DNA of 64,000 bases, taken from positions 962,790 through 1,026,789 of the forward strand of contig JAXHLS010000006.1 of assembly GCA_034522055.1 (NCBI GenBank), given 5' to 3'. The notes beneath the pieces were generated by a model, which was not told where the DNA came from, searched no databases, and saw only the letters and a list, made by a program, of their open reading frames with translations. This DNA comes from Gammaproteobacteria bacterium. GTDB lineage: Bacteria > Pseudomonadota > Gammaproteobacteria > JAABTG01. Shown here piece by piece: positions 2,268-61,033 of this stretch (positions are counted from its first letter, which is position 1; every line of letters starts with the position of its first letter). Both the position numbers and the translations under genes were made by a program.

Positions 2268-4173
2268 TGCCTGCACGAGAAACTCAAAAGAGTTTATTGA
2301 TCAACGGCATAAGCTAATAATCGCGACGCGAAGAATGCGACGGTTCCGTTTGCTGGATTGCAAGATAAATCTGTAACGCATTGATCTGCATTGATATAAT
2401 GGCGGCGTAACCGGTGAGGGCCGGACGGTACAGGCGCACAAGGCCCTTGAGAGACGCAATCTTCGCCAGGATGAAATTCGTATGCGCAAGGTGATCGAGC
2501 CGCAAATGCAGATCGGCGAGCAGGACATCGGCGCGATTTGGCTCGATCCCAAATCGCGCGATGACATCCCGCAGCTCCTGCGGGGACTGCAGCACATCTA
2601 CACCACGCCCGCGTTGCGCGAGCGGGTTTTCGCGATCCTTGAAGAGGTGCGCCCGGTACGTGATAGCGAGGCAGAAAATGTCCTGGTGGCCCCTAACGCC
2701 GGTCGGCCGGGGATGTCGCAGTGGAAGATCCTGGTGCTTGGCGTACTGCGCCTGGGGCTCAGTGCCGACTACGACAGGGTCCGGGAACTGGCCAACGAGC
2801 ACAACACGATCCGCCAGTTCCTCGGGCACGGCGACTGGACCGACACCTATCTCTACCCGATGCAGACGCTACGGGATAATCTGCGCCTGTTCACCCCGGA
2901 GCTCCTGGACCGGATCAATCAAGAGGTGGTGCGTGCGGGGCACAAGGCGCTAAAAAAAAACCTAGAAGAAGGGCTCGTCGGGCGCTGTGACTCGTTCGTG
3001 GTGGAGACCGATGTGCATTTCCCCACCGACATCAACTTGCTGCTCGACGCCATCCGTAAGGTCATCGATTTGAGCACCGAACTGGCCGAACTCCACGCGC
3101 TGCCCGGTTGGCGTCAGCATGCCCACCATCAGCGCCAGTTTAAGCGCCAGTACCGAATCGTCCAGCGGCTCAAACACTCCACCTCCAAGGACGAAGACAA
3201 GCGTCAAGCCAAACTGCAGGATATCGCCGAGGCCCACGGCACCTACCTGGAACTGGCCGAGGACCACCTGACCCGTGCCGAGCAGATCCGCCAGAAAGTG
3301 CCGGCCTCCTGTGCGCTGAGCGAGGGGCTGCTGCGCGAGCTTGATGAATTCATGACCCACGCCAATCGGCAGATCGATCAGATCCGCCGCCGCGTGCTCC
3401 AGGGCGAGCGCATCCCCCACAATGAGAAGGTCTTCTCGTTGTTCGAGCCCCACACCGAGTGGATCAGCAAGGGCAAGGCCGGGGTGCCGGTGGAGTTGGG
3501 GTTGCGGGTGTGCGTGATGGAGGACAGCGACCGTTTCATCCTGCACCACCAGGTGATGCAGATGTGCACCGATGATCAGGTGGCCGTACCGATGGTTGAG
3601 GAGACGAAGGAGCGATTTGCGCCACTGCGCGCTGTTAGCATGGACAAGGGCTTCCACAGTCCAGCCAACCAGGCGGCCTTGGCTGAGCGTCTGGAGCGGG
3701 TGGTCCTGCCGAAGAAGGGTCGTCTCTCTCAGGCCGACAAGGTGCGCGAGAGTGATGAGGAATTTCTGCGCCTGCGCCATCGCCATTCGGCGGTGGAGTC
3801 GGCCATCAATGCCCTGGAGGTTCATGGTCTGGACAAGTGTCCGGACCACGGCATCGAGGGCTTCAAGCGCTATGTGGCGCTGGCCGTGCTCGCACGCAAC
3901 ATTCACCGCCTTGGCGCGCTGCTGCGTCAGCAAGAACAAGAGCGGGAGCGGCGAAGGCGCGGCCCCTACCGAAAGGCTGCCTGAGCAGCGCTCCGAAGCC
4001 GATACCGCGCCACGCGGACAGGAGAGGAGCGTCTGCACATCACCATCAATGCGAAGCATTCGCATTGGATGACGCCACGCATCTCAAAACAGTCGCCAAG
4101 GTGGAACACCGGCCATCAGTACCTGAGTGTCACGCTGGGAATTTGCCGGGAAATACGGGTTTTCGTGCAGGCA
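2268..4173 (+). mobile_element. Insertion sequence (1906 bp, IS4/IS5-superfamily, possibly IS1182-like) with ~11-15-bp terminal inverted repeats beginning TGCCTGCACGA
   Basis: A single 500-aa DDE transposase ORF is bounded by inverted termini (left TGCCTGCACGAGAAA; right, reverse-complemented, TGCCTGCACGAAAAC) and an 8-bp direct repeat. It interrupts an otherwise continuous helicase ORF. Confidence 0.7.
2482..3984 (+). CDS. DDE transposase, IS4/IS5 superfamily (DDE_Tnp_1-like)
   Basis: 500-aa ORF with DDE-transposase-like motifs (FVVETDVHFPTD, VSMDKGFHS, HSAVESAINALE, KRYVALAVLARNIHRLG); GC content is lower than the flanks. Confidence 0.75.
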   Translation: MRKVIEPQMQIGEQDIGAIWLDPKSRDDIPQLLRGLQHIYTTPALRERVFAILEEVRPVRDSEAENVLVAPNAGRPGMSQWKILVLGVLRLGLSADYDRVRELANEHNTIRQFLGHGDWTDTYLYPMQTLRDNLRLFTPELLDRINQEVVRAGHKALKKNLEEGLVGRCDSFVVETDVHFPTDINLLLDAIRKVIDLSTELAELHALPGWRQHAHHQRQFKRQYRIVQRLKHSTSKDEDKRQAKLQDIAEAHGTYLELAEDHLTRAEQIRQKVPASCALSEGLLRELDEFMTHANRQIDQIRRRVLQGERIPHNEKVFSLFEPHTEWISKGKAGVPVELGLRVCVMEDSDRFILHHQVMQMCTDDQVAVPMVEETKERFAPLRAVSMDKGFHSPANQAALAERLERVVLPKKGRLSQADKVRESDEEFLRLRHRHSAVESAINALEVHGLDKCPDHGIEGFKRYVALAVLARNIHRLGALLRQQEQERERRRRGPYRKAA

Positions 4174-4181
4174 CGAAGTAG
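4174..4181. repeat. 8-bp target-site duplication CGAAGTAG (right copy)
   Basis: See the left copy. Confidence 0.7.
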
Positions 4182-5614
4182 GTGTTGATAGTGCGTCCCG
4201 GCAACTGCCCCTCCACCTCGTCCTTGCGCCGGCGCAGCATGACGGGGCGCAGCCGCTCGTGAAGTTGGTCGAGGTTTTGGTAGCCGATGGCCCGCCCCTT
4301 GTCGTCCAACTGATAGAAGTCGCGGTTGAAGCGGAACAGCGGGCCGAAGATGTGGGGATCGAGAAACTCCGCGATGGAATAGATCTCGTCGATACGGTTC
4401 TCCACCGGGGTGCCGGTGAGGACGAAGGCATAGGGACTCTGCAGGCTCTTCACCGCCGCCGCGGTGCGCGTCTGCCAGTTCTTGATGCGCTGGGCCTCGT
4501 CGAGGATGACCACATCCGGGGCCAGGATGGTGTTGATGGCCGTCACGTCGGGGCGGATCTGCTCGTAGTTGGCGAGGTAGAAGAATGCCGGGGCCGCGTA
4601 CTCGCGCTCCCGCTCGGCCCGCGGCCCGTGGATGATGCGCGAAGGCAGGGTCGTGAACTTGGCGATCTGCTCCTCCCATTCGCCCTTCAGGGAGGCCGGC
4701 GACACCACCAGCACCCGCCGGATCCCGGCGCTGCGGCGCAACAGCTCGCAGGCCGCCACCGCCTGCACCGTCTTGCCCAGACCCATCTCGTCCGCCAGCA
4801 GGGCGCGGCCGGTGAGGGCCAGGTGCAGCATGCCCTCCTGCTGGTAGGGATAGAGGGCATGGTGCACCAGGTTGAGGTCGAGCCTGCCCGCCGCGATCTC
4901 CGCCTCCACGTGTTGGCGGTGGCGGCGCCGCTCCTCGCACCGATCCTGCTCTTCGAGCCAGGCGCGCAGGGCCGGCGAGATGCGGATGCGGCGGCGAGTC
5001 GCCGGATGGGCAGCGTCCACCGCCCGCAGCAGGGCGGGCAGGGTATCGAGGGGGTTGCCGGCGAGGATACCGTCCCCGCCATCGTACCCGGCAAGCAAGG
5101 CGCCGGCCCGGGAGCGGCCCTTGTCATGGGGTGCTTCCAGATGCACCCGTTGGTCCCGCCGGTCGAGGTATACCTCGAACCACGGGCTCCCCGCGGCGGC
5201 GGCCCGGACGAAGGCGCGACGCTGGCGGCTGCCAAGCCACTGCAGCACGGCCTCCACATGCTTGCAGGTACCGAGCCCGTTGACGCGGTGATCGGCGCAG
5301 TCGCAACTGTTGACCAGTGCCCCCAGGGAGCGGATCTCCACCCGATAGGCCTTGGCCCCCGATTGGACCCGGAAGTCCCCAAAGAAGGGATCGGCGCCGT
5401 CCACCGGCTCGATGGCCATGGGCTCCTGCTCGGCCCGCAGGCGCCGCCGCTCCACCTCGTCGGCGTCGGTGGTCAGCCATCCCGTGGGCCGGGGGCGTGC
5501 GCGCGGAGTCTTCGACTTCCTGGTCGTCCTGGGCCTGGTCTTGGGCGTAGTCCTGGGCATGACGTTAGACGTCCTCGTCCTGTGCGATACGGGGCATGGC
5601 CATGGGGTGTCCAC
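4174..5614 (-). pseudogene. N-terminal fragment of the SNF2-family helicase with a SWIM zinc finger and DEXH ATP-binding domain
   Basis: ORF 4130..5614 has a SWIM finger (CDCADHRVNGLGTCKHVEAV), Walker A/DEXH motifs (LADEMGLGKTVQAVA, VVILDEAQRIKN) and a K/R-rich N-terminus. The ORF ends 14 codons into the IS. The start may be the internal ATG at 5560 or 5419. Confidence 0.75.
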
Positions 5615-5835: not shown

Positions 5836-5842
5836 CATGCTC

Positions 5843-6420
5843 CTGGCAGCCGACGGGATCCCGGCGGGTGGCGGGCGGGATGTCGGTTGCCAGGAGCAAC
5901 CGACCTACATCCGTGCCCCGGGAACGGGCGGTGGGCGTACCTACGGGCCGGGATGTCGGGATGAATCCCGACCTACAAAAGCGCACCGAAATACGCGAGT
6001 GACGCGAAAAGGGAAAAGGTCAGGGAGGAGTGGCCGTTCGAAAAGGCGCAGCGGATCCACCGTTTCGGCGTCAGCAGAGCGGACGCACGGGTGGTAATCT
6101 TTTCCCATTTCCCATTTCCCATTTCCCATTTCCCATTTCCCATTCCCCCTGGGGAGAAGGACAGAGGCGTAGGTCGGCTGCTCTTGGCAGCCGACGGAAA
6201 CTCGGCGCTTTGCGGGCGCGGATGTCGGTTGCCAGGAGCAACCGACCTACATTCGTGCCGAAGGAACGGGCGGTGAGCGTATCTACGGGCCAGGATGTCG
6301 GGATGAATCCCGACCTACATTCGTGCCGAAGGAACGGGCGGTGGGCGTATCTACGGGCCGGGATGTCGGGATGAATCCGGACCTACATCCGTGCCAAAGG
6401 AATGGGCAGCGTATGCAGCC
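5843..6420. repeat. REP/BIME cluster (units GATGTCGG[GATGAATC/TTGCCAGGAGCAA]CCGACCTACATCCGTGCC, ~68-bp periodic sub-array)
   Basis: At least seven palindromic units occur between the helicase gene and fliK. Identical units recur at 26845..27058, 46189..46260, 46527..46552, 57201..57326, 60733..60767 and 61003..61028. Confidence 0.8.
5951..6210. repeat. Copy 1 of a ~300-bp MITE-like dispersed repeat (element A) containing a (GGGAAAT)5 microsatellite
   Basis: About 90% nucleotide identity, in reverse orientation, to 46189..46552 and 60733..61033. Contains TCCCATTTCCCATTTCCCATTTCCCATTTCCCATT. Bounded by REP palindromes. Confidence 0.8.
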
Positions 6421-13379: not shown

Positions 13380-13580
13380 TGGGTCCGCTGCGCTCGACCC
13401 ACCCTACGTAAGCTGAGCGCTGGCGCGAAACCCCGCGTAGGGTGGAACAAGCGCAGCGGTTCCACCGCTCCGGGCCCCGGGCATCGCCCCGGCGGCCGCG
13501 ATGGGTCCGCTGCGCTTGATCCGCCCTACGTAACCCGGACTGCGGCGCGCGACCCAGCGTCGGGTGAAACGAGCGCCTCG
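13380..13580. repeat. Tandem duplication of a ~95-bp unit in the fleR-fliE intergenic region
   Basis: Unit 1 (GGGTCCGCTGCGCTCGACCCACCCTACGTAAGCTGAGCGCTGGCGCGAAACC...TGGAACAAGCGCAGCGGTTCCACCG) and unit 2 (GGGTCCGCTGCGCTTGATCCGCCCTACGTAACCCGGACTGCGGCGCGCGACC...TGAAACGAGCGCCTCGCTTCCACCG) are ~75% identical. Confidence 0.7.
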
Positions 13581-13590
13581 CTTCCACCGG

Positions 13591-16356: not shown

Positions 16357-17766
16357 TCAGAAGTCCGTCACGTCTTCCGGGCGCCTGATGCCGTGCTTGC
16401 GCATCTTTTCCACCAGGGTGGTGCGCCCCAGGCCGAGACGTTTGGCCGCCCGCGCCACCACGCCATCCACCTCGTCCAGGGCCTGCTTGATGAGGGTATA
16501 TTCCAGCTGATTGATGTATTCCTTGAGGTCCAGGCCATCCGCCGGCAGGTGATGTCCAACGCCTGCCGCCACCCCCATCGCCGCCGTGCCGGCCTCGGAC
16601 TCCGGCAGATCCGGGATGTCCTCTCCGAGGTGGGCCCGGAAGCGCTCGGGAAGCTCCGGCACATCCACCACACCGTAGGGATGGAGGATGGCCAGCCGCT
16701 CGATGAGGTTGGCCAGTTCGCGCACGTTGCCCGGCCAGCCGTAGCCCATCAGCGCCCGCACCGCGCGCTCGTGCAGGCGCACCGAGCCGCGCCCCTCGGC
16801 CTCGATACGTTCCGCGAGGGTGGTGATGAGGTGGGGCAGGTCCTCGGTGCGTTCCCGCAGCGGCGGCATGTTCATGGGAAACACATTGAGCCGGTAATAA
16901 AGATCCTCGCGGAAACGGCCCGCCGCGATGCCCTGCTCCAGGTCGTTGTGGGTGGCGGCGATGATGCGCACGTCTGCCCGCAGACTCTTGTTGCTGCCCA
17001 CCCGCTCGTAACTGCGTTCCTGTAACACCCGCAACAGCTTGACCTGCATCGCCAGAGGCATATCGCCGATCTCATCCAGAAACAGGGTGCCCCCTTCGGC
17101 GATCTCGAAGCGCCCCCGCCGGGCACTGATGGCCCCGGTGAACGCCCCCTTCTCATGGCCGAAGAGTTCGCTTTCCAGCAGTTCGGCGGGAATGGCGCCG
17201 CAGTTGACCGGCACGAAGGGCCGGTGGCGGCGCGGCGACAGGGCATGGATGGTGCGCGCCGCCACCTCCTTGCCCGTACCCGACTCCCCCAGCACCAGCA
17301 CCGTGGCCTCGGACCCCGCCACCTGCTCGATCATGCGGCGGACCCCCATCATGCTGCGGCCTTCCCCCACCAGCCCGCCGCCGTCGCGGGCCTGGCCCCC
17401 TGCGGCCCGTGGCGCCTCCCGCTGGCCGCCAAGGGCCTCCTTGAGGTGTTCGAGCTTGAGGGGGAACGGCACCACCGCCACATCCGGCGAGCCCGCCGGG
17501 GCTTCCTCGACTCCGGTCACGATCACCCTGGCATCCGGAAACAAGGCCGCCAACTCCGCGAGCCCGCCTTCCCCACCCGCCACCAGGGCCCCGGGCCCGA
17601 CAAGCACCACCCCCGGCGCGGCGTCGCCCTCCACCACGACGCGCACCTCGTCGGCGCCGGGGCGCGCGCAGACCAGTACCCGGTAATCCATGAACCCGAA
17701 CACCGCTTCGATGCGCGCGCGGCACTCATCGTCCGGCTCGATCACGAGAACTGTGGGCATATGCAC
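16357..17766 (-). CDS. fleQ: Sigma54-dependent flagellar master regulator (FleQ/FlrA)
   Basis: Strong similarity to FleQ over the AAA+ domain ([14 protein letters not shown]-like [60 protein letters not shown]) and a C-terminal HTH. Confidence 0.85.
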
Positions 17767-17906: not shown

Positions 17907-17985
17907 GCCCTACGGGCCACCAGCGAAAAGCGTAACCACGAAAGACGCGAAAAGGGAAAGGGGAAAAGGCCGGGGGGGTCGATTA
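17907..17985. repeat. Partial copy of dispersed repeat A (the GCGAAAAGCGTAACCACGAAAGACGCGAAAAGGGAAAGGGG end)
   Basis: Matches the terminal ~70 bp of element A. Confidence 0.6.
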
Positions 17986-18149
17986 CCCGCAGGAGCGACG
18001 CCCCCGTCGTGATTTTCCGGCTGCGCCGGTCCCCCTCACCCTGGCACGCAAGAAACCATCGAAGTAGGGGCCGTTCCCATCAAGCAGCCCATTGGGGGAG
18101 GCGACCAAGGGTAAAAGACAGCCCCACCCCCGTCATGCCGAGGGCAAGA

Positions 18150-18190
18150 GACACCCCACCTCGTCATGCCGGGCTTGACCCGGTATCCAG
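18150..18190. repeat. Second small REP-like palindrome family (CGTCATGCCGGGCTTGACCCGGTATCCAGGGC)
   Basis: Near-identical copy at 37045..37085 (GTCATACCGGGCCCGACCCGGTATCCAGGGGC). Confidence 0.55.
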
Positions 18191-26816: not shown

Positions 26817-27022
26817 GGGGGGAAGGATAATGCATATGGGGCGGGTTGTCGGACTGAAGTCCGACCTACAGTCCGACCTACAGCCCGACCTACAGAGACA
26901 CCACCACCGTCTGTTCCTGCGGCACCCGTGTAGGTCGGGATTCATCCCGACATCAAACCCCACCGCATGCACCACGGGCCGGATCGGAACCCCTATCCTT
27001 AGGTGTCGGGATAAATCCCGAC

Positions 27023-28683: not shown

Positions 28684-28850
28684 ATAGAGTGAATAGTGAA
28701 TAGTGAATGGTGAATAGTCGAGCCTCGCTCAGTGGTTGCTTTTACCATTCACTATTCACTATTCACTATTCACTGAATTGCACTATTCACTGCATTTCAC
28801 CATTCACTGAATTGCACCATTCACTAACGCCCCCTACTCCCCCCCCTTTC
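28684..28850. repeat. Heptamer array forming a large palindrome: (AGTGAAT)x4 - 30-bp centre - (ATTCACT)x4, followed by GAATTGCAC-(C/T)ATTCACT repeats
   Basis: Read directly: GTGAATAGTGAATAGTGAATGGTGAATAG...CATTCACTATTCACTATTCACTATTCACTGAATTGCACTATTCACTGCATTTCACCATTCACTGAATTGCACCATTCACT. It lies immediately upstream of the DUF411 gene start. Confidence 0.75.
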
Positions 28851-46188: not shown

Positions 46189-46552
46189 CTACATCCGTGC
46201 CGTAGGAACGGGCGGAGGGATGTCTCTGTAGGTCGGGATTCATCCCGACATTACCGCTCCGATTCTGTCGGCTGCCAAGAGCAGCCGACCTACGCCTCTG
46301 TCCTTCTCCCCAGGGAAAATGGGAAAGGGGAACGGGGAAAAGATTACCACCCGTGCGTCCGCTCTGCTGACGCCGAAACGGTGGATTAGCTGCGCCTTTT
46401 CGAACTGCCACTCCTCCCTGACCTTCTTCCTTTTCGCGCCTTTCGCGACTTTCGTAGTTACCGCTTTTGTTTTTTTAATAACCCTGACCTTCTCCCTTTT
46501 CGCGTCTTTCGCGGTTACGCTTTTAGTAGGTCGGGATTCATCCCGACATCCC
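46189..46552. repeat. Copy 2 of dispersed repeat A (MITE-like), with only 2-3 GGGAAA(T) units
   Basis: About 90% identical to 60733..61033, in the same orientation. Carries an extra internal duplication (CCTGACCTTCTTCCTTTTCGCGCC...CCTGACCTTCTCCCTTTTCGCG). Confidence 0.8.
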
Positions 46553-46566
46553 AAGCCCAGCCGGGA

Positions 46567-47235
46567 TCACCAATCCAGTTTCATCTGCACGCCCACGGCC
46601 GGAGCGGGCTCCAGGGAGCCATCGTCATCGAAGAGGGCGTCGCCTTTGCCTCCATGGCGCCATCCCCGGCCACGCCCCAACTCGCTGGGTCGGCCATAGT
46701 GCATGCGCCAGGACATCCCCTCGCCCGTCACAAGCTCTGAATGCAGATGTTCGGTGATGCCCCGCAGTGGGCTGCCAAGGAATTGCAGCAGCGGATCCGG
46801 GCCGTCAGCGGCGCTCGCATCCGGGTCCGTCAGAAGCTGCGGATCCGTGGCCACGGCGGCATCGGACTCGAATACCACCGGGGCCAGGGTCCGATACCAG
46901 GGGCCGCTACCAGCCCCAGGGGTCACATCCGACCCTTTGATGGCCTCGGCCAGCAACCGCGACAGGCTGGCGAGGGCGGGGCGCGGATCCCACGGCGCCG
47001 GGGCTGCGTGCGCTTCGGCCACTCCCCCGGGGGCCTTGAGTTCCGCTCGCGTGCCGGCCTCGGCGTTGGCCACCCTCACGCCACCATCCAGACCCAGGAA
47101 CAAGCCGTCCTCCACCCCGTGGTCGGGGTCGCCGTCAGCCGCGACCGCCCCTGGGGATACGGCCACCACCAACAGCATCAGAGTCCACGCCAAGCCGAGG
47201 GACAGGCGCCAGTTGAGCGATCGGAAGGGCAACAT
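46567..47235 (-). CDS. Hypothetical secreted protein
   Basis: Signal peptide (MLPFRSLNWRLSLGLAWTLMLLVVAVSPGAVAA) and an Asp/Gly-rich mature part ending VQMKLDW. No family assignment. Confidence 0.45.
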   Translation of the reverse strand: MLPFRSLNWRLSLGLAWTLMLLVVAVSPGAVAADGDPDHGVEDGLFLGLDGGVRVANAEAGTRAELKAPGGVAEAHAAPAPWDPRPALASLSRLLAEAIKGSDVTPGAGSGPWYRTLAPVVFESDAAVATDPQLLTDPDASAADGPDPLLQFLGSPLRGITEHLHSELVTGEGMSWRMHYGRPSELGRGRGWRHGGKGDALFDDDGSLEPAPAVGVQMKLDW

Positions 47236-47419
47236 GGCCGTAAGAATAGCACCGGATCTCGGAAATGCCGCCCCTGTCACACTCCAAGCACAGGCCGTTC
47301 TGGACCTTCGCGGCGGCAAGGGCTATCCGCCCCGGAGTGCTCCCGCCACGGGCAGGAACACGACCGGGGCATATACCCTCGTTTCCCTGCCCCCGGCCCT
47401 CGTCTCCCTGACCCCGGCG

Positions 47420-54446: not shown

Positions 54447-54507
54447 GAGCGAAAAGCGTAACCGCGAAAGACTCGAAATTACGCGAAATGGGACAAGGTC
54501 GGGGGCG
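54447..54507. repeat. Partial copy of repeat A terminus
   Basis: GAGCGAAAAGCGTAACCGCGAAAGACTCGAAATTACGCGAAATGGGACAAGGTCGGGGG. Confidence 0.55.
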
Positions 54508-54513
54508 GTTACA

Positions 54514-54573
54514 GTGAAAACGGTGTCAGGAACCGTTTCCACGCTCGGAAACGGTTCCTGACACCGTTTTCAC
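54514..54573. terminator. Perfect 26-27-bp hairpin downstream of gspF
   Basis: GTGAAAACGGTGTCAGGAACCGTTTCC-ACGCTCG-GAAACGGTTCCTGACACCGTTTTCAC. There is no downstream U-tract. It sits between convergent genes. Confidence 0.45.
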
Positions 54574-57200: not shown

Positions 57201-57326
57201 GTGGCACGGATGTCGGGAGTCATCCCGACATTCAACCCGGCCGCACACACCATGAGTCGGGCAGGAAATCCCGCCGGCGGGCTGTCGGGCTGTCGGGCTG
57301 AAGCCCGACCTACAGCCGACCTACAG
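57201..57326. repeat. REP cluster (GTCGGGAGTCATCCCGAC, GTCGGGCTGAAGCCCGACCTACAG, CCGACCTACAG)
   Basis: Same family as the other REP clusters. The last unit is the insertion target of the TniAB element. Confidence 0.8.
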
Positions 57327-57507
57327 TGTTGTATCTCAAATTATTCCACCAGTAATTTCCCGGTTTATTCCGAGCGAGTAGGCTGCAGTTTTCTCGGTTT
57401 GAGCGCTCCGGTGGAAGAGCGCGGGCAGGATAGGATGAGAAGAAGCTGGAGGTCTGGCGAGATGGGCGCCGCTTGTGGCGGCGGTTGCGGTTGGGAAAGA
57501 CTGGGAT

Positions 57508-57693
57508 TCAGTCCCAGAGGTCGGGCTGTCTGGGATTGGTGTTCTGGTAGTAGCGCGTGATCTCGGCGAAGTAGCGGTTTTCGAGGGTCTGGGCGATGGC
57601 GTAGAGGAGGTCAACCATCTGAGCGGCGGCCTCGTCGGAGAGGTGGTCGGGCAGGGTCTGATCGTCGTCGTTCATGGTGGTGTGGTGTCTCAC
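57508..57693 (-). CDS. Small element-borne hypothetical protein (61 aa)
   Basis: Overlaps the tniB-like stop (ATGA) at the distal end of the element. No family assignment. Confidence 0.35.
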   Translation of the reverse strand: MRHHTTMNDDDQTLPDHLSDEAAAQMVDLLYAIAQTLENRYFAEITRYYQNTNPRQPDLWD

Positions 57694-58490
57694 GGTTGCA
57701 GCTCGTCGAGCGCTGTCTGGAGGTGGGTCTCGGTGACGTGGTGTTGGTTGTCCAGCGCGGCGGCAGTGAGGGCGTAGTGGGCGATGCGGTTGACCTTGCG
57801 CGGAAGCCCGCGCGAGGCCTGGAACAGGGCCTCGGTTGCGGGTGGGGTGAAGATGGGGGCCTCGGCGCCGGCGAGGCGCAGGCGGTGAATGAGATAGTCA
57901 TCGAGTTCGTCGCGCGAGAGGCCGGGGAGGTGGTGGCGCACCACCAGTCGCTGGCTCAACGACTCGTGCACGGCCATGGCGAGGCGTCGGCGCAGCTCGG
58001 TGAGCCCGACCAGCAGCAGGCACAGGCGGTTGTCGGCATCCATGGCGTAGCTGGTCAAGAGGCGCAGATCCTCGAGCACGTCATTGCGTAGGTGCTGCGC
58101 CTCGTCGACGATCAACACGGGCAGCTGCTTGGCCTCCTGCACCAGGCGGGTGATCTCGACGCGGATGGCGCGGTAGGCGGTAGCGCGGGACCGCTCCGTG
58201 GGCAGGCCGAGTTCCCAGGCGATGGACTTGTACATATCGAGCACGTTGCCGGTGGACAGGGAGACGTAATAGACGCGGTACAGGCCGGGATGGAGTCCGG
58301 CGGTGACGTGCCGGCAGACGGTGGTTTTGCCGGAGCCGACCTCGCCGGTCAGCAGGCCGATGCCGCGCAGATCGATGAGGTGCGTGAGCCGGGCCTCGGC
58401 CTCGCGGCGGGCGGTGGAGGCATAGAGTTCATCGGCCTCGAGGGTATTCTCGAAGGGGAAGCGAGTGAACGCGAAGTGGCGCAGATACAT
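57690..58490 (-). CDS. TniB/ExeA-like AAA+ ATPase (transposition helper)
   Basis: Walker A (LLTGEVGSGKTT) and Walker B (VLIVDEAQHL). Its start overlaps the transposase stop. Confidence 0.75.
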   Translation of the reverse strand: MYLRHFAFTRFPFENTLEADELYASTARREAEARLTHLIDLRGIGLLTGEVGSGKTTVCRHVTAGLHPGLYRVYYVSLSTGNVLDMYKSIAWELGLPTERSRATAYRAIRVEITRLVQEAKQLPVLIVDEAQHLRNDVLEDLRLLTSYAMDADNRLCLLLVGLTELRRRLAMAVHESLSQRLVVRHHLPGLSRDELDDYLIHRLRLAGAEAPIFTPPATEALFQASRGLPRKVNRIAHYALTAAALDNQHHVTETHLQTALDELQP

Positions 58491-59836
58491 TAGTCGTTCT
58501 CCTCATTGTGCGGGTTGTCGAAGGCCCCGAGGGTGAGACGCGACGGGGGCGGTTCGGAGGCTGGGGTATCGGTGTCGAGGCGCCAGGAGGGCCGGTCGCG
58601 GCGCACGGTGGTGTTGGCATAGGCATCGAGCGGCGTGGCCTGTCCTGCCGGCTGGCCTTTATGGACCACGGTCAGGGGCCGGGTGGGCGGCACGGCGGGG
58701 TCGTACTGTAAGGTCACGGTCTCGCCGACGAGCACGGCGTCGACCTCATAGACGTGGCCGTTCAGGCTCACGGTGCGGTCGTTCATGACCCGGCGCTTGG
58801 TCTCGCAGAGGAACAGCGCATCGAGGCCGGGATCGGGGAAGCGGATCTGATCGCCGACCAGGGCCCACTGTTCGAGGGGCGTTTTGCCGTCGAGGCCGCG
58901 GTGCGGGGTGTGGTGATACTCGCCCTCGATGAAGGCCCACAGGCGTCGGTTGAGGGCCTCGAGGCTCACCGTATCCTCAGCGGTGAGCTGGGTGAGCAGC
59001 TGTGCTCGGACGGTGCGGAACCAGCGTTCGATTTTGCCCTTCCCCTGAGGTTGATGGGGTCGGGCGTGGATCAGCGCCGTGCCGAGCCTGGCGCAGACGA
59101 GGGCGAGTTGGCGGGAGCGGTAGTTGGCGCCGTTGTCGACGTAAAGGCGCTGGGGGATCCCGCGGCGGATGAGAGCCTGCTTGAACACCGGCAGGAAGGC
59201 GCCGGTGTTTTCGGCGAAGGCGAAGGCCGCATAGGGGATGACGCGGGTGGCGTCATCGATGAAGGCGATGAGATAGGTCTTTCTGCGCCGGCCCCGCCCA
59301 TCAGCGGCGGTGATGCCATGCATCACATCGCTCATCCACAGCTCGTCGGCGTACTGGAAGGCGAAGCGCCGCCGATCGGTGCCGATGGGTGCATCGGTCT
59401 TCTTGACCATGAGCCCTTCGCGGGTGAACAGACGGTGCACGGTGGAGGCGGGCAACGGCTGCTCGGCCGGGACCAGGCCCTGCTCGCGTGCGTGTTTGAT
59501 CACTGCGCGCACTGACAGCTTCGGATGCCCCTCTTTGATGGCGCACAGCGCTTCGGCCACGGAGTCGGGCAGTCGCCGGGGCTGCCCCCGATCGGCCCGT
59601 GGCTTGGGCAACAGCGCGTCGAAGCCGCCGCGCCGATAGTGCTTGAGCCAGTCGCGGATCGTCTCGGCGGCCACGCGGGAGCGACGGCTGCCGGGGATCA
59701 CATAGTCCTTGTCTGCCTTGGCGCGCAGCCGCTCGGTGATGCCGGCACTGCCCGGGGGCCAGTGTACGAGGTCGGCGATCAGGCCGTAGCGGAACAGGGC
59801 CACCGCCTGGCGGTGGTCATCATCAGGATCAGTCAT
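58490..59836 (-). CDS. Mu-type DDE transposase (retroviral-integrase catalytic core + Mu-transposase C-terminal domain; TniA/TnsB-like)
   Basis: N-terminal HTH, DDE residues (WMSDVMHG, LYVDNGANY, HQPQGKGKIERWFRT) and a C-terminal beta-barrel (DRTVSLNGHVYEVDAVLVGETVTLQYD). Confidence 0.8.
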   Translation of the reverse strand: MTDPDDDHRQAVALFRYGLIADLVHWPPGSAGITERLRAKADKDYVIPGSRRSRVAAETIRDWLKHYRRGGFDALLPKPRADRGQPRRLPDSVAEALCAIKEGHPKLSVRAVIKHAREQGLVPAEQPLPASTVHRLFTREGLMVKKTDAPIGTDRRRFAFQYADELWMSDVMHGITAADGRGRRRKTYLIAFIDDATRVIPYAAFAFAENTGAFLPVFKQALIRRGIPQRLYVDNGANYRSRQLALVCARLGTALIHARPHQPQGKGKIERWFRTVRAQLLTQLTAEDTVSLEALNRRLWAFIEGEYHHTPHRGLDGKTPLEQWALVGDQIRFPDPGLDALFLCETKRRVMNDRTVSLNGHVYEVDAVLVGETVTLQYDPAVPPTRPLTVVHKGQPAGQATPLDAYANTTVRRDRPSWRLDTDTPASEPPPSRLTLGAFDNPHNEEND

Positions 59837-59882
59837 CGGATCTTCTCTCGGTTATGAGCCCTTGGGCCCGGGAGAGGAGACG

Positions 59883-60392
59883 TTACGGCGGAGAACGCGG
59901 CGGATCAGGCCCCAGGGGTTGTTGGGTGGCCAAATTGGGATCACCGTGGGCGGTTGCCCGGGGACAAAACCCCACCGGCGTCGGCAGTTGAGGCAGCTGC
60001 CGGGCCGCCGAAGCACGCAGCGCCATCAGCACGGTCTCATGGCCGAGATGGCCACGAAGGTGAGTGACGGTCGCGAGGCAGCCGGCCAGTTGGTCAGGCA
60101 GAAGAGCGATGACGATGAGCAAGAAACGGTGCACCAAGACAATGCGCCGGCGTATCCAGCGCAGCGCCCCCGGCAGCTCGATATCCAGGCGCAAGGTGCT
60201 TGCCGCCGCTTCCATGCTCGGCGCCTGCTCGGCGACGGCCACCACGTGTTCCAGCTCGTTGAGCGTACCGGGCAGCCGTGCCGCCAGATGGTCCGGCAAC
60301 AGACTGAAGGTGGTGTGACTCTCAGGGCAGTACCAGCGGGCGATTCGTGTCCCCGCCGGCGTCTTGCGCTCGTAGGTGCCGTGGCGGGCCAA
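59883..60392 (-). CDS. Element-borne hypothetical protein (169 aa)
   Basis: First ORF of the four-gene unit, 47 nt upstream of the transposase gene. Contains YCPESHTTFSLLPDHLAARLPGTLNELEH. No family recognised. Confidence 0.4.
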   Translation of the reverse strand: MARHGTYERKTPAGTRIARWYCPESHTTFSLLPDHLAARLPGTLNELEHVVAVAEQAPSMEAAASTLRLDIELPGALRWIRRRIVLVHRFLLIVIALLPDQLAGCLATVTHLRGHLGHETVLMALRASAARQLPQLPTPVGFCPRATAHGDPNLATQQPLGPDPPRSPP

Positions 60393-60732
60393 CGAGCAAC
60401 CACCACGAGGATGGTTTGGGCAGCGAGAGAACTTGCCTCCCGCCAGGCTTGGCGGTTAACGTAATCCTCGCTGGTGTGCCCCGTTTGGAATCGAAGCTGC
60501 ACCGGCCACGGCCCGGCGGCTGTCACCGCGCGGGCCTTTTCCTTTCTTCTCACTTATCGGTAAGTAGAGATTACCGGCTCTGCCCCGATCAGCGAAAGCC
60601 TCAACATCCACCGGCGACACCCCTGCCCGACGACTTCCCGGAATACTCTCTCTGACCAGAGGCTTCACCAGCGGGACAAACCGAGAAGATCCGACTGGTA
60701 TCCAACGCTTTAATCTGCGAAACAACATACAG

Positions 60733-61033
60733 TCTGTAGGTCGGTTGCTCTCGGCAACCGACATCCGCGCCCGCAAAGCGCCGAGTTTCCGTCGGCTGCC
60801 AAGAGCAGCCGACCTACGCCTTTGTCCTTCTCCCCAGGGGAAATGGGAAAGGGGAAACGGGAAATGGGAAAAGATTACCATCCGTGCGTCCGCTCTGCTG
60901 ACGCCGAAACGGTGGATTCGCTGCGCCTTTTCAAACGGCCACTCCTCCCTGACCTTCTCCCTTTTCGCGTCATTTCGCGTCTTTCGCGGTTACGCTTTTA
61001 GCCTGTAGGTCGGGATTCATCCCGACATTCAAC
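60733..61033. repeat. Copy 3 of dispersed repeat A (MITE-like), with (GGGAAA(T/C))~4
   Basis: Bounded by the REP units CTGTAGGTCGGTTGCTCTCGGCAACCGACAT and CTGTAGGTCGGGATTCATCCCGACAT. Immediately adjacent to the TniAB element's TSD. Confidence 0.8.

Follow-up and report, generated by a model that had tools for sequence, protein, structure and literature searches.

What is the repeat of about 300 bp that recurs between the genes of a 64,000-nt stretch of Gammaproteobacteria bacterium contig JAXHLS010000006.1 (assembly GCA_034522055.1, forward-strand positions 962,790 to 1,026,789)? We refer to this whole 64-kb stretch as the window and to the repeat, present there in three full and two partial copies, as element A. 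A sequence-only reading had described element A as an active or recently active repeat resembling a miniature inverted-repeat transposable element (MITE), bracketed by repetitive extragenic palindromic (REP) hairpins. Our analysis indicates that "MITE-like, recently active" overstates the case, while most other details of that reading are correct. With a probability of roughly 0.55, element A is a lineage-specific, non-coding, REP-associated mosaic repeat, a composite that resembles the bacterial interspersed mosaic elements (BIMEs).

BLAST of each copy against the window places the full copies at 5951–6250 (minus strand; c1), 46263–46551 (plus; c2) and 60736–61029 (plus; c3). c1 and c3 share 88.0% identity over 308 nt (E 1e-111), c2 matches c3 at 90.2% over 214 nt and 82.9% over 82 nt, and c2 matches c1 at 82.1% over 229 nt. 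The copies are therefore related, as had been stated, but their pairwise identity ranges from 82 to 90% and is not a uniform ~90%. The corresponding divergence of 10–18%, with no near-identical pair, lends recent activity no support. All three reported sites hold, with altered extents: c1 reaches 6250 once its REP-B/spacer/REP-C doublet is counted in, and homology in c2 starts at about 46263, not 46189. Local G+C is 54–58% in element A and 67.7% in the window as a whole. A terminal piece had also been reported to stand alone at two sites, and both are present. One is a tail-only fragment at 17922–17978 (minus, 80% identity by BLAST). The other, at 54449–54504 by BLAST (minus, 89%), was pushed from 54504 to 54539 by an nhmmer profile search, reaching the right part of the core, so that this fragment (54449–54539) comprises the tail plus part of the right core.

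The most conserved 21-mer of the element, GCTCTGCTGACGCCGAAACGG, served as a probe for a wider census. It had no match in 185,579 species genomes (one representative each) and none in viral contigs, and it matched four metagenome contigs, here L002 to L005. In L002 a full copy immediately follows a sigma-70 family gene, and rdgC is close by. L003 and L005 represent a single locus in two samples, and the JGI samples of this metagenome locus are Ga0102943 and Ga0102938; among the genes of the L005 contig are rpe, one for a HAD hydrolase, trpE and lpxR, and the element lies between a CopD-like gene and a gene cut at the contig end. L004 was set aside as a chance 37-nt match inside the GntR-like helix-turn-helix coding region of an unrelated gene. 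The metagenome contigs thus add two loci with unrelated flanks, in agreement with the earlier description of a dispersed, multi-copy repeat. Judged from the collections searched, element A is dispersed beyond the window and appears confined to a narrow lineage. A distant-mode search of a plasmid collection returned chance matches only, at query positions 51–91 and mostly in the heptamer tract described below.

The REP component is distributed quite differently from the core. A pattern scan for REP-A, the REP type that usually closes the element, hit more than 120 loci in many Proteobacteria, and the core was present in none of them. The REP motif GTAGGTCGGGANNNATCCCGAC (loci L006–L125) occurs in Gallionella, Sideroxydans, Rhodanobacter, Marinomonas, Methylotetracoccus and Lacimicrobium. 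REP-A is so widespread in Proteobacteria that it is uninformative on taxon, and relative to the core of element A this REP type is either much more ancient or much more mobile. Within the organism itself, a strain comparison by exact-protein look-ups turned up only short Logan contigs from one short-read run (SRR26473340), which match the window at 100% identity and stop at repeats. Their ends fall at 46296 (3 nt past the c2 REP-C head), at 61008 (the c3 REP-A head) and at 6349 (a REP-A array), as expected for sequences that are repeated in that genome. Short-read assemblies of this organism break precisely where element A begins and ends.

Multiple alignments give every full copy the same module order, here in c3 orientation: a REP-C hairpin, a (GGGAAAT)n heptamer tract, a 50-nt central block, a pyrimidine-rich linker, a TTTCGCG tail and an inverted REP-A. 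From one flanking REP to the other, the core measures about 190–250 nt. The GTAG heads of REP-C and REP-A point inward to the core, and REP-B and REP-C likewise form an inverted pair. Hairpins of the form GTAG-GTCGG...CCGAC surround every full copy, so the reported bracketing by REP palindromes stands. The longer order REP-B, spacer s2, REP-C, core and REP-A, followed by spacer s1 and another REP-A, is common to c1, c3 and L003, and both spacers recur elsewhere within REP clusters. c1, c2, c3, L002 and the short form in L003 share the junction between REP-C and the core. Five REP clusters lie in the window (5838–6400, 26848–27022, 46232–46547, 57212–57326 and 60736–61029), and element A is present in three of them. 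c1 is embedded in a 342-nt tandem duplication of REP modules (5838–6319), beside a 68-nt REP-A/s1 array of 2.4 copies with 93% matches (6242–6407).

The individual modules are readily delimited. REP-B reads GTAG-GTCGGTTGCTC..GGCAACCGAC-AT, spacer s2 reads CCGCGCCCGCAAAGCGCCGAGTTTCC, inverted REP-C reads GTCGGCTGCCAAGAGCAGCCGAC-CTAC and REP-A reads GTAG-GTCGGGATTCATCCCGAC-AT. In c3 orientation the left junction is GCCTCTGTCCTTCTCCCCAG and the 50-nt central block is GGGAAAAGATTACCAYCCGYGCGTCCGCTCTGCTGACGCCGAAACGGTGG; the pyrimidine-rich right block terminates in CCCTGACCTTCTCCC, and the tail holds two or three TTTCGCG heptamers at 9–11 nt spacing and terminates in GGTTACGCTTTT. In c1, all on the minus strand, the tail end is a REP-A hairpin at 5951–5977 (stem 5955–5972; head CTAC at 5973–5976 on the plus strand), followed by a shortened TTTCGCG tail (5978–6010), the right block (6011–6052), the central block (6057–6106, with a 38-nt hairpin at 6057–6094), the heptamer tract of TTTCCCA/GGGAAAT units (6101–6148), the left junction CCTACGCCTCTGTCCTTCTCCCCAG (6149–6173) and a doublet composed of REP-C (6169–6195), s2 (6196–6221) and REP-B (6220–6250). 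c2 lies on the plus strand and opens with REP-C and the left junction (46263–46313; stem 46267–46289, head CTAC at 46290–46293), with an additional REP-A immediately upstream (46228–46251). A degenerate heptamer tract (46312–46340), the central block (46335–46384; hairpin 46347–46384), the right block (46389–46430) and a tail with a tandem duplication that runs into REP-A (46431–46551; REP-A 46526–46551) complete it. c3, also on the plus strand, starts with a doublet of REP-B, 28-nt spacer and REP-C (60736–60817) and continues through the left junction (60813–60837), heptamer tract (60838–60871), central block (60866–60915; hairpin 60878–60915), right block (60920–60961) and a tail of three TTTCGCG heptamers (60962–60999) to REP-A (61005–61029), the tail and REP-A together spanning 60962–61029.

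Folding separates the inner doublet from the element as a whole. In c1 and c3, REP-C is the right arm of the 82-nt REP-B/s2/REP-C doublet, whose arms are 89% complementary and which folds as a single hairpin in single-stranded DNA (−26.9 kcal/mol, z −5.75). Across the whole of element A, REP-C and REP-A each form a hairpin of their own, and pairing between them is confined to the CCUAC/GUAGG heads.

In this composite, a REP-C hairpin is joined head-on to the ~190–250-nt core, and a second inverted REP, usually REP-A, caps it. Element A would travel with its REPs, either through the genome's REP-associated tyrosine transposase (RAYT) acting on single-stranded hairpin DNA or through recombination between REP clusters. 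Once in place, copies change by point mutation, heptamer slippage, tail duplication and deletion between CCTTCTCCC direct repeats, and all four changes are seen among the copies. Element A occupies several intergenic sites in both orientations without a target-site duplication, and any influence on the host probably goes no further than what its hairpins do locally to transcripts.

Several observations weigh against this reading. No RAYT or Y1 transposase domain was found in the ~40 window open reading frames (ORFs) scanned, whereas a REPIN would have its cognate RAYT gene in the same genome, usually with REPs on both sides of it. Neither an empty site nor a recent insertion was seen, and transposition is for this reason only inferred. 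Independent copies number just five. The left end varies, beginning with REP-B in c1 and c3, with REP-A and a different spacer in c2, and with unique DNA followed by a partial s2 in L002, and being truncated within the heptamer tract in L003/L005. Neither tail-only fragment has a neighbouring REP, so the history of the tail may be separate from that of the REPs. Finally, conservation of the central block exceeds what neutral decay of selfish DNA explains.

Could element A instead be a classic MITE, that is, the remnant of a DDE-type insertion sequence (IS) after internal deletion, moved in trans by the transposase of that IS? It is small, non-coding, multi-copy and intergenic in both orientations, and the window contains two mobile elements, an ISNCY element and a Mu/Tn7-like mini-transposon. 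However, direct repeats flank none of c1, c2, c3, L002 and L003; the neighbouring transposon has a clear 5-bp duplication. The only inverted termini are the 9-nt REP heads. The left boundary is inconstant, contrary to the defined ends expected earlier, and the window holds no related autonomous IS. BLAST within the window found no similarity between element A and the ends of either the ISNCY element (2395–3984) or the transposon (57327–60727), ruling out an origin from these two. In the strict sense, a MITE is thus an improbable description of element A.

The transposon next to c3, previously termed the TniAB element, is informative about the history of that site. It is a 3.4-kb Mu/Tn7-like mini-transposon (57327–60727) with ends TGTTGTATC... 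and ...GAAACAACA and a 5-bp target duplication, TACAG, at 57322–57326 and 60728–60732. Its minus-strand genes encode a transposase with rve and Mu-transpos_C domains (58490–59836) and an AAA_22 ATPase (57690–58490). The transposon is inserted into a REP cluster, and the REPs at 57208–57326 previously adjoined c3 directly.

The best conserved part of element A is its center. Across 50 central columns there are three variable positions in the five independent copies, where 21 columns are fixed by how the metagenome copies were retrieved, and one among the three window copies, which are free of that selection. By comparison, 18 of 45 columns vary in the right block and 12 of 36 in the tail (five copies). 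The central block is under constraint. It may be a recognition structure for mobilisation, or a DNA or RNA hairpin used by the host; if the conserved hairpin is the recognition site of a REP-associated transposase, it would offer a handle on how such enzymes choose their substrates. Folded as DNA, the 38-nt hairpin has energies of −9.4 and −10.3 kcal/mol on the two strands, with z of about −3.3 (−9.4 kcal/mol and z −3.4 for the c3 hairpin).

An almost invariant 50-nt block between variable flanks is also what a multi-copy structured RNA would display, either a small RNA or a cis-regulatory element, whose core would consist of the invariant hairpin and an enclosing stem, with the REPs as flanking stabilisers. 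The strand that is plus in c1 and minus in the other two window copies reaches −99 kcal/mol on folding, compared with −83.4 kcal/mol for shuffled sequences (z −3.2). A 10-bp stem, GGGAGAAGGU/AUCUUUUCCC, encloses the hairpins, and four of its pairs vary only between A-U and G-U; in the same strand sense, a U-rich run, UAAUCUUUUCCC, comes after the hairpin. Yet the whole-element z-scores of −3.2 and −2.45 include the REP hairpins, which contribute to them. Rfam 15 gave no match at gathering score anywhere in the window, and relaxing the E-value threshold brought up just two models, a plant miRNA (26 of 197 bits) and ylbH (14 of 50 bits), both noise. Consensus folds of the five sequences, whose invariant main hairpin leaves little power, have a covariation term near zero, with one or two compensatory pairs, and the observed covariation lies within the range of shuffles, being reached in 19–102 of 500 (102/500; 19–90/500). 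Promoter and terminator scans found no site recurring among the copies and nothing promoter-like spanning the heptamer tract. Inspection by eye for sigma-28 and sigma-54 promoter motifs, an integration host factor site, an integron attC site and group II intron domain V gave no convincing match.

Gene context bears on the same question. Placement of the copies at gene boundaries, noted previously, was confirmed and refined. c1 lies downstream of fliK, and both fliK and the helicase gene read it in one sense; c2 lies upstream of a kinase gene whose operon reads it in the opposite sense; c3 occupies a former divergent spacer. Among the three window copies, element A has no consistent orientation relative to neighbouring genes. 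Since its orientation to flanking transcription differs among copies, a gene-directed cis function of element A is unlikely. A structured RNA, for which the opposite reading of c1 and c2 is likewise awkward, is an unlikely account of the element, though one that would deserve some weight.

We found element A to be non-coding. When the six frames were compared across copies, each was interrupted by stop codons, carried indels of a length not divisible by three, or lacked a start common to the copies, in line with the earlier view that the apparent peptides are shadow ORFs; the ATGs of the heptamer tract rotate through all frames. Two profile searches with the shadow pseudo-peptides of two frames found no match among 5.8 billion proteins. 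One consequence is that element A generates spurious ORFs in several frames. The same searches count against a decayed fragment of a protein gene, for example a helix-turn-helix regulator, passively duplicated with REP clusters. Such an origin was suggested by one frame, which reads ...EKAQRIHRFGVSRADARVV..., and by the 21-mer match to the GntR-like region in L004. However, that match covers just 37 nt of an unrelated gene, and the frame has a stop codon in L002, no start, and frameshifting indels. We regard a gene relic as highly improbable.

The heptamer tract is unstable. Tandem Repeats Finder assigns it 6.9 units with 97% matches in c1 (6101–6148), 4.1 units with 77% matches in c2 (46312–46340) and 4.9 units with 88% matches in c3 (60838–60871), bearing out the variability described before. 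With as many as two mismatches tolerated, the pattern GGGAAATGGGAAA occurs 18 times, where chance predicts 0.81. L003 (956–1523) and L005 (5947–5352) align without a mismatch and with a single 28-nt gap, one GGGAATA unit versus five, in 568 nt that are otherwise identical. This gap is direct evidence that heptamer copy number changes by slippage in natural populations, and the difference of four units between samples supports the earlier suspicion that the tract is unstable. The perfect arrays are built from different units, GGGAAAT in c1 and GGGAATA in L005, which points to independent expansions. A 7-nt microsatellite with natural length polymorphism thus sits inside a REP-type repeat, and element A would be a convenient strain marker of the variable-number tandem repeat type.

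Tract instability raises the prospect of a contingency, or phase-variation, switch, in which slippage of (GGGAAAT)n would alter the expression of a neighbouring gene, for example by way of the promoter spacing, the reading frame of a small ORF or a G-quadruplex on the G-rich strand. In favor of it, the tract is polymorphic at one locus in two samples, perfect arrays have arisen separately, the 7-nt unit is not a multiple of three, and all three window copies fit the G3+N1-7 quadruplex motif. That motif is nonetheless common in this window of 68% G+C, with 22 occurrences in 64 kb, and we dropped quadruplex enrichment as an argument. Slippage is suppressed by the degeneracy of most tracts. Neither an ORF nor a start codon is conserved, and the tract has neither a fixed distance nor a fixed orientation to gene starts in the differing contexts of c1, c2 and c3, nor a fixed position relative to a promoter or ORF, so the phase-variation role once proposed found no support. 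A switch of this kind is very unlikely. We are just as doubtful of a broader version in which the hairpin and the expandable G3N4 tract would form a cis-module, either as strand-specific RNA or, at the DNA level, as hairpin and G-quadruplex together, tuned by slippage and spread on REPs as a phase-variable transcriptional or recombinational signal.

Larger changes within copies fit the mosaic reading of element A. The tail of c2 contains a tandem duplication, earlier put at ~50 bp and measured here as a 66-nt repeat (46416–46447 and 46482–46513, 94%). Two CCTTCTCCC direct repeats bracket the core, and the second unit in L003/L005 reads REP-C-GCCTCTG|ACCTTCTCCC-tail. This short-form junction is exactly the one predicted for a deletion mediated by CCTTCTCCC, which explains the tail-only short forms.

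The surroundings of element A hold further features. An ISNCY-family transposase gene at 2395–3984 (NCBIfam NF033593, E 1e-162) interrupts the SWIM/SNF2 helicase gene near c1, splitting it on the minus strand into an SNF2 N-terminal part (4130–5614) and a Helicase_C part (842–2287). Between a malic enzyme gene and c2, a minus-strand ORF of 250 amino acids (46567–47322) has moderate coding statistics and no Pfam or NCBIfam match. The tail fragment at 17922–17978 lies 160–210 nt upstream of a sigma-54 activator gene (16357–17766, minus), and near it the long spacer upstream of that gene contains a 31-nt tandem repeat (18108–18171; two copies, 84% matches). The other fragment, at 54449–54539, lies just past the stop of a T2SSF gene (54431), and where the central hairpin normally would be there stands a perfect 60-nt palindrome (54514–54573; 27-bp arms, 6-nt loop, −34.6 kcal/mol as DNA, z −10). 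Located between convergent T2SSF and TPR genes and abutting the element A fragment, this palindrome may terminate transcription in both directions or represent a small element in its own right. Elsewhere in the window, an AT-rich intergenic tandem array (28688–28826) combines AGTGAAT/ATTCACT heptamers with a 17-nt period, CACTATTCACTGAATTG, in 4.6 copies, which is unusual at 68% G+C. An 88-nt palindromic repeat with CCCTACG...CGTAGGG arms occurs twice, 122 nt apart (13380–13467 and 13502–13589, 78% identical), in a spacer beside flagellar genes, and looks like a second repeat family.

How does element A compare with known systems? The Correia/NEMIS, ERIC and RUP MITEs have defined terminal inverted repeats and, in most cases, a target-site duplication (TA for Correia). 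Element A resembles them in being small and non-coding, with dispersed intergenic copies and hairpin potential, but it has neither terminal inverted repeats nor a target-site duplication. Contingency loci share with it a tract length that is polymorphic in nature, as seen between L003 and L005, whereas the tract of element A lies in no conserved ORF and no promoter spacer, and its gene context differs from copy to copy. The pneumococcal BOX element of Streptococcus pneumoniae, boxA-(boxB)n-boxC, has a variable unit of 45 bp (PMC3049150, PMC3102655). Like BOX, element A is a modular, non-coding, interspersed repeat with a variable number of internal subunits, a predicted fold and no known transposase of its own. 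The two have no sequence similarity, however; the unit of element A is 7 bp, and BOX is not bounded by REPs and belongs to a Gram-positive host.

Closer parallels come from the REP world. REP doublets forming hairpins (REPINs) are mobilised by RAYTs (Bertels and Rainey, PMC3116915, PMC3337134). They are defined as like REPs that form one hairpin, around a short spacer (34–110 bp in SBW25), with the hairpin conserved but not the sequence (PMC3337134). Element A shares with REPINs the inverted REP pairs with GTAG heads, the intergenic location and the lack of a target-site duplication, and its REP-B/28-nt spacer/REP-C doublet in c1 and c3 folds as a single hairpin. It differs in that the whole element ends in two unlike REPs, so that only the inner doublet forms one hairpin, and in that no RAYT was found for it among the ~40 window ORFs scanned. 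Its spacer is also ~190–250 nt long and 82–90% identical between copies, with a nearly invariant 50-nt block. Element A is thus a clear example of REP hairpins with a long conserved cargo in place of a spacer free to vary.

BIMEs consist of extragenic REP hairpins in alternating orientation with conserved non-REP motifs in a fixed order, the motifs between REPs measuring at most ~40 nt. Element A likewise sits among extragenic, alternating REPs with recurring non-REP motifs in fixed order, its module combinations vary, and tandem amplification has occurred, as in the 68-nt and 342-nt arrays at 5838–6407. Unlike these motifs, its internal motif is ~200 nt long and carries its own hairpin and two tandem-repeat tracts, and it has no sequence relationship to the motifs of E. 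coli. BIMEs are known from enterobacteria (Gilson et al. 1991, cited in PMC3337134). Taken together, element A is best read as a new family of interspersed bacterial repeats of an established kind, the BIME/REPIN type.

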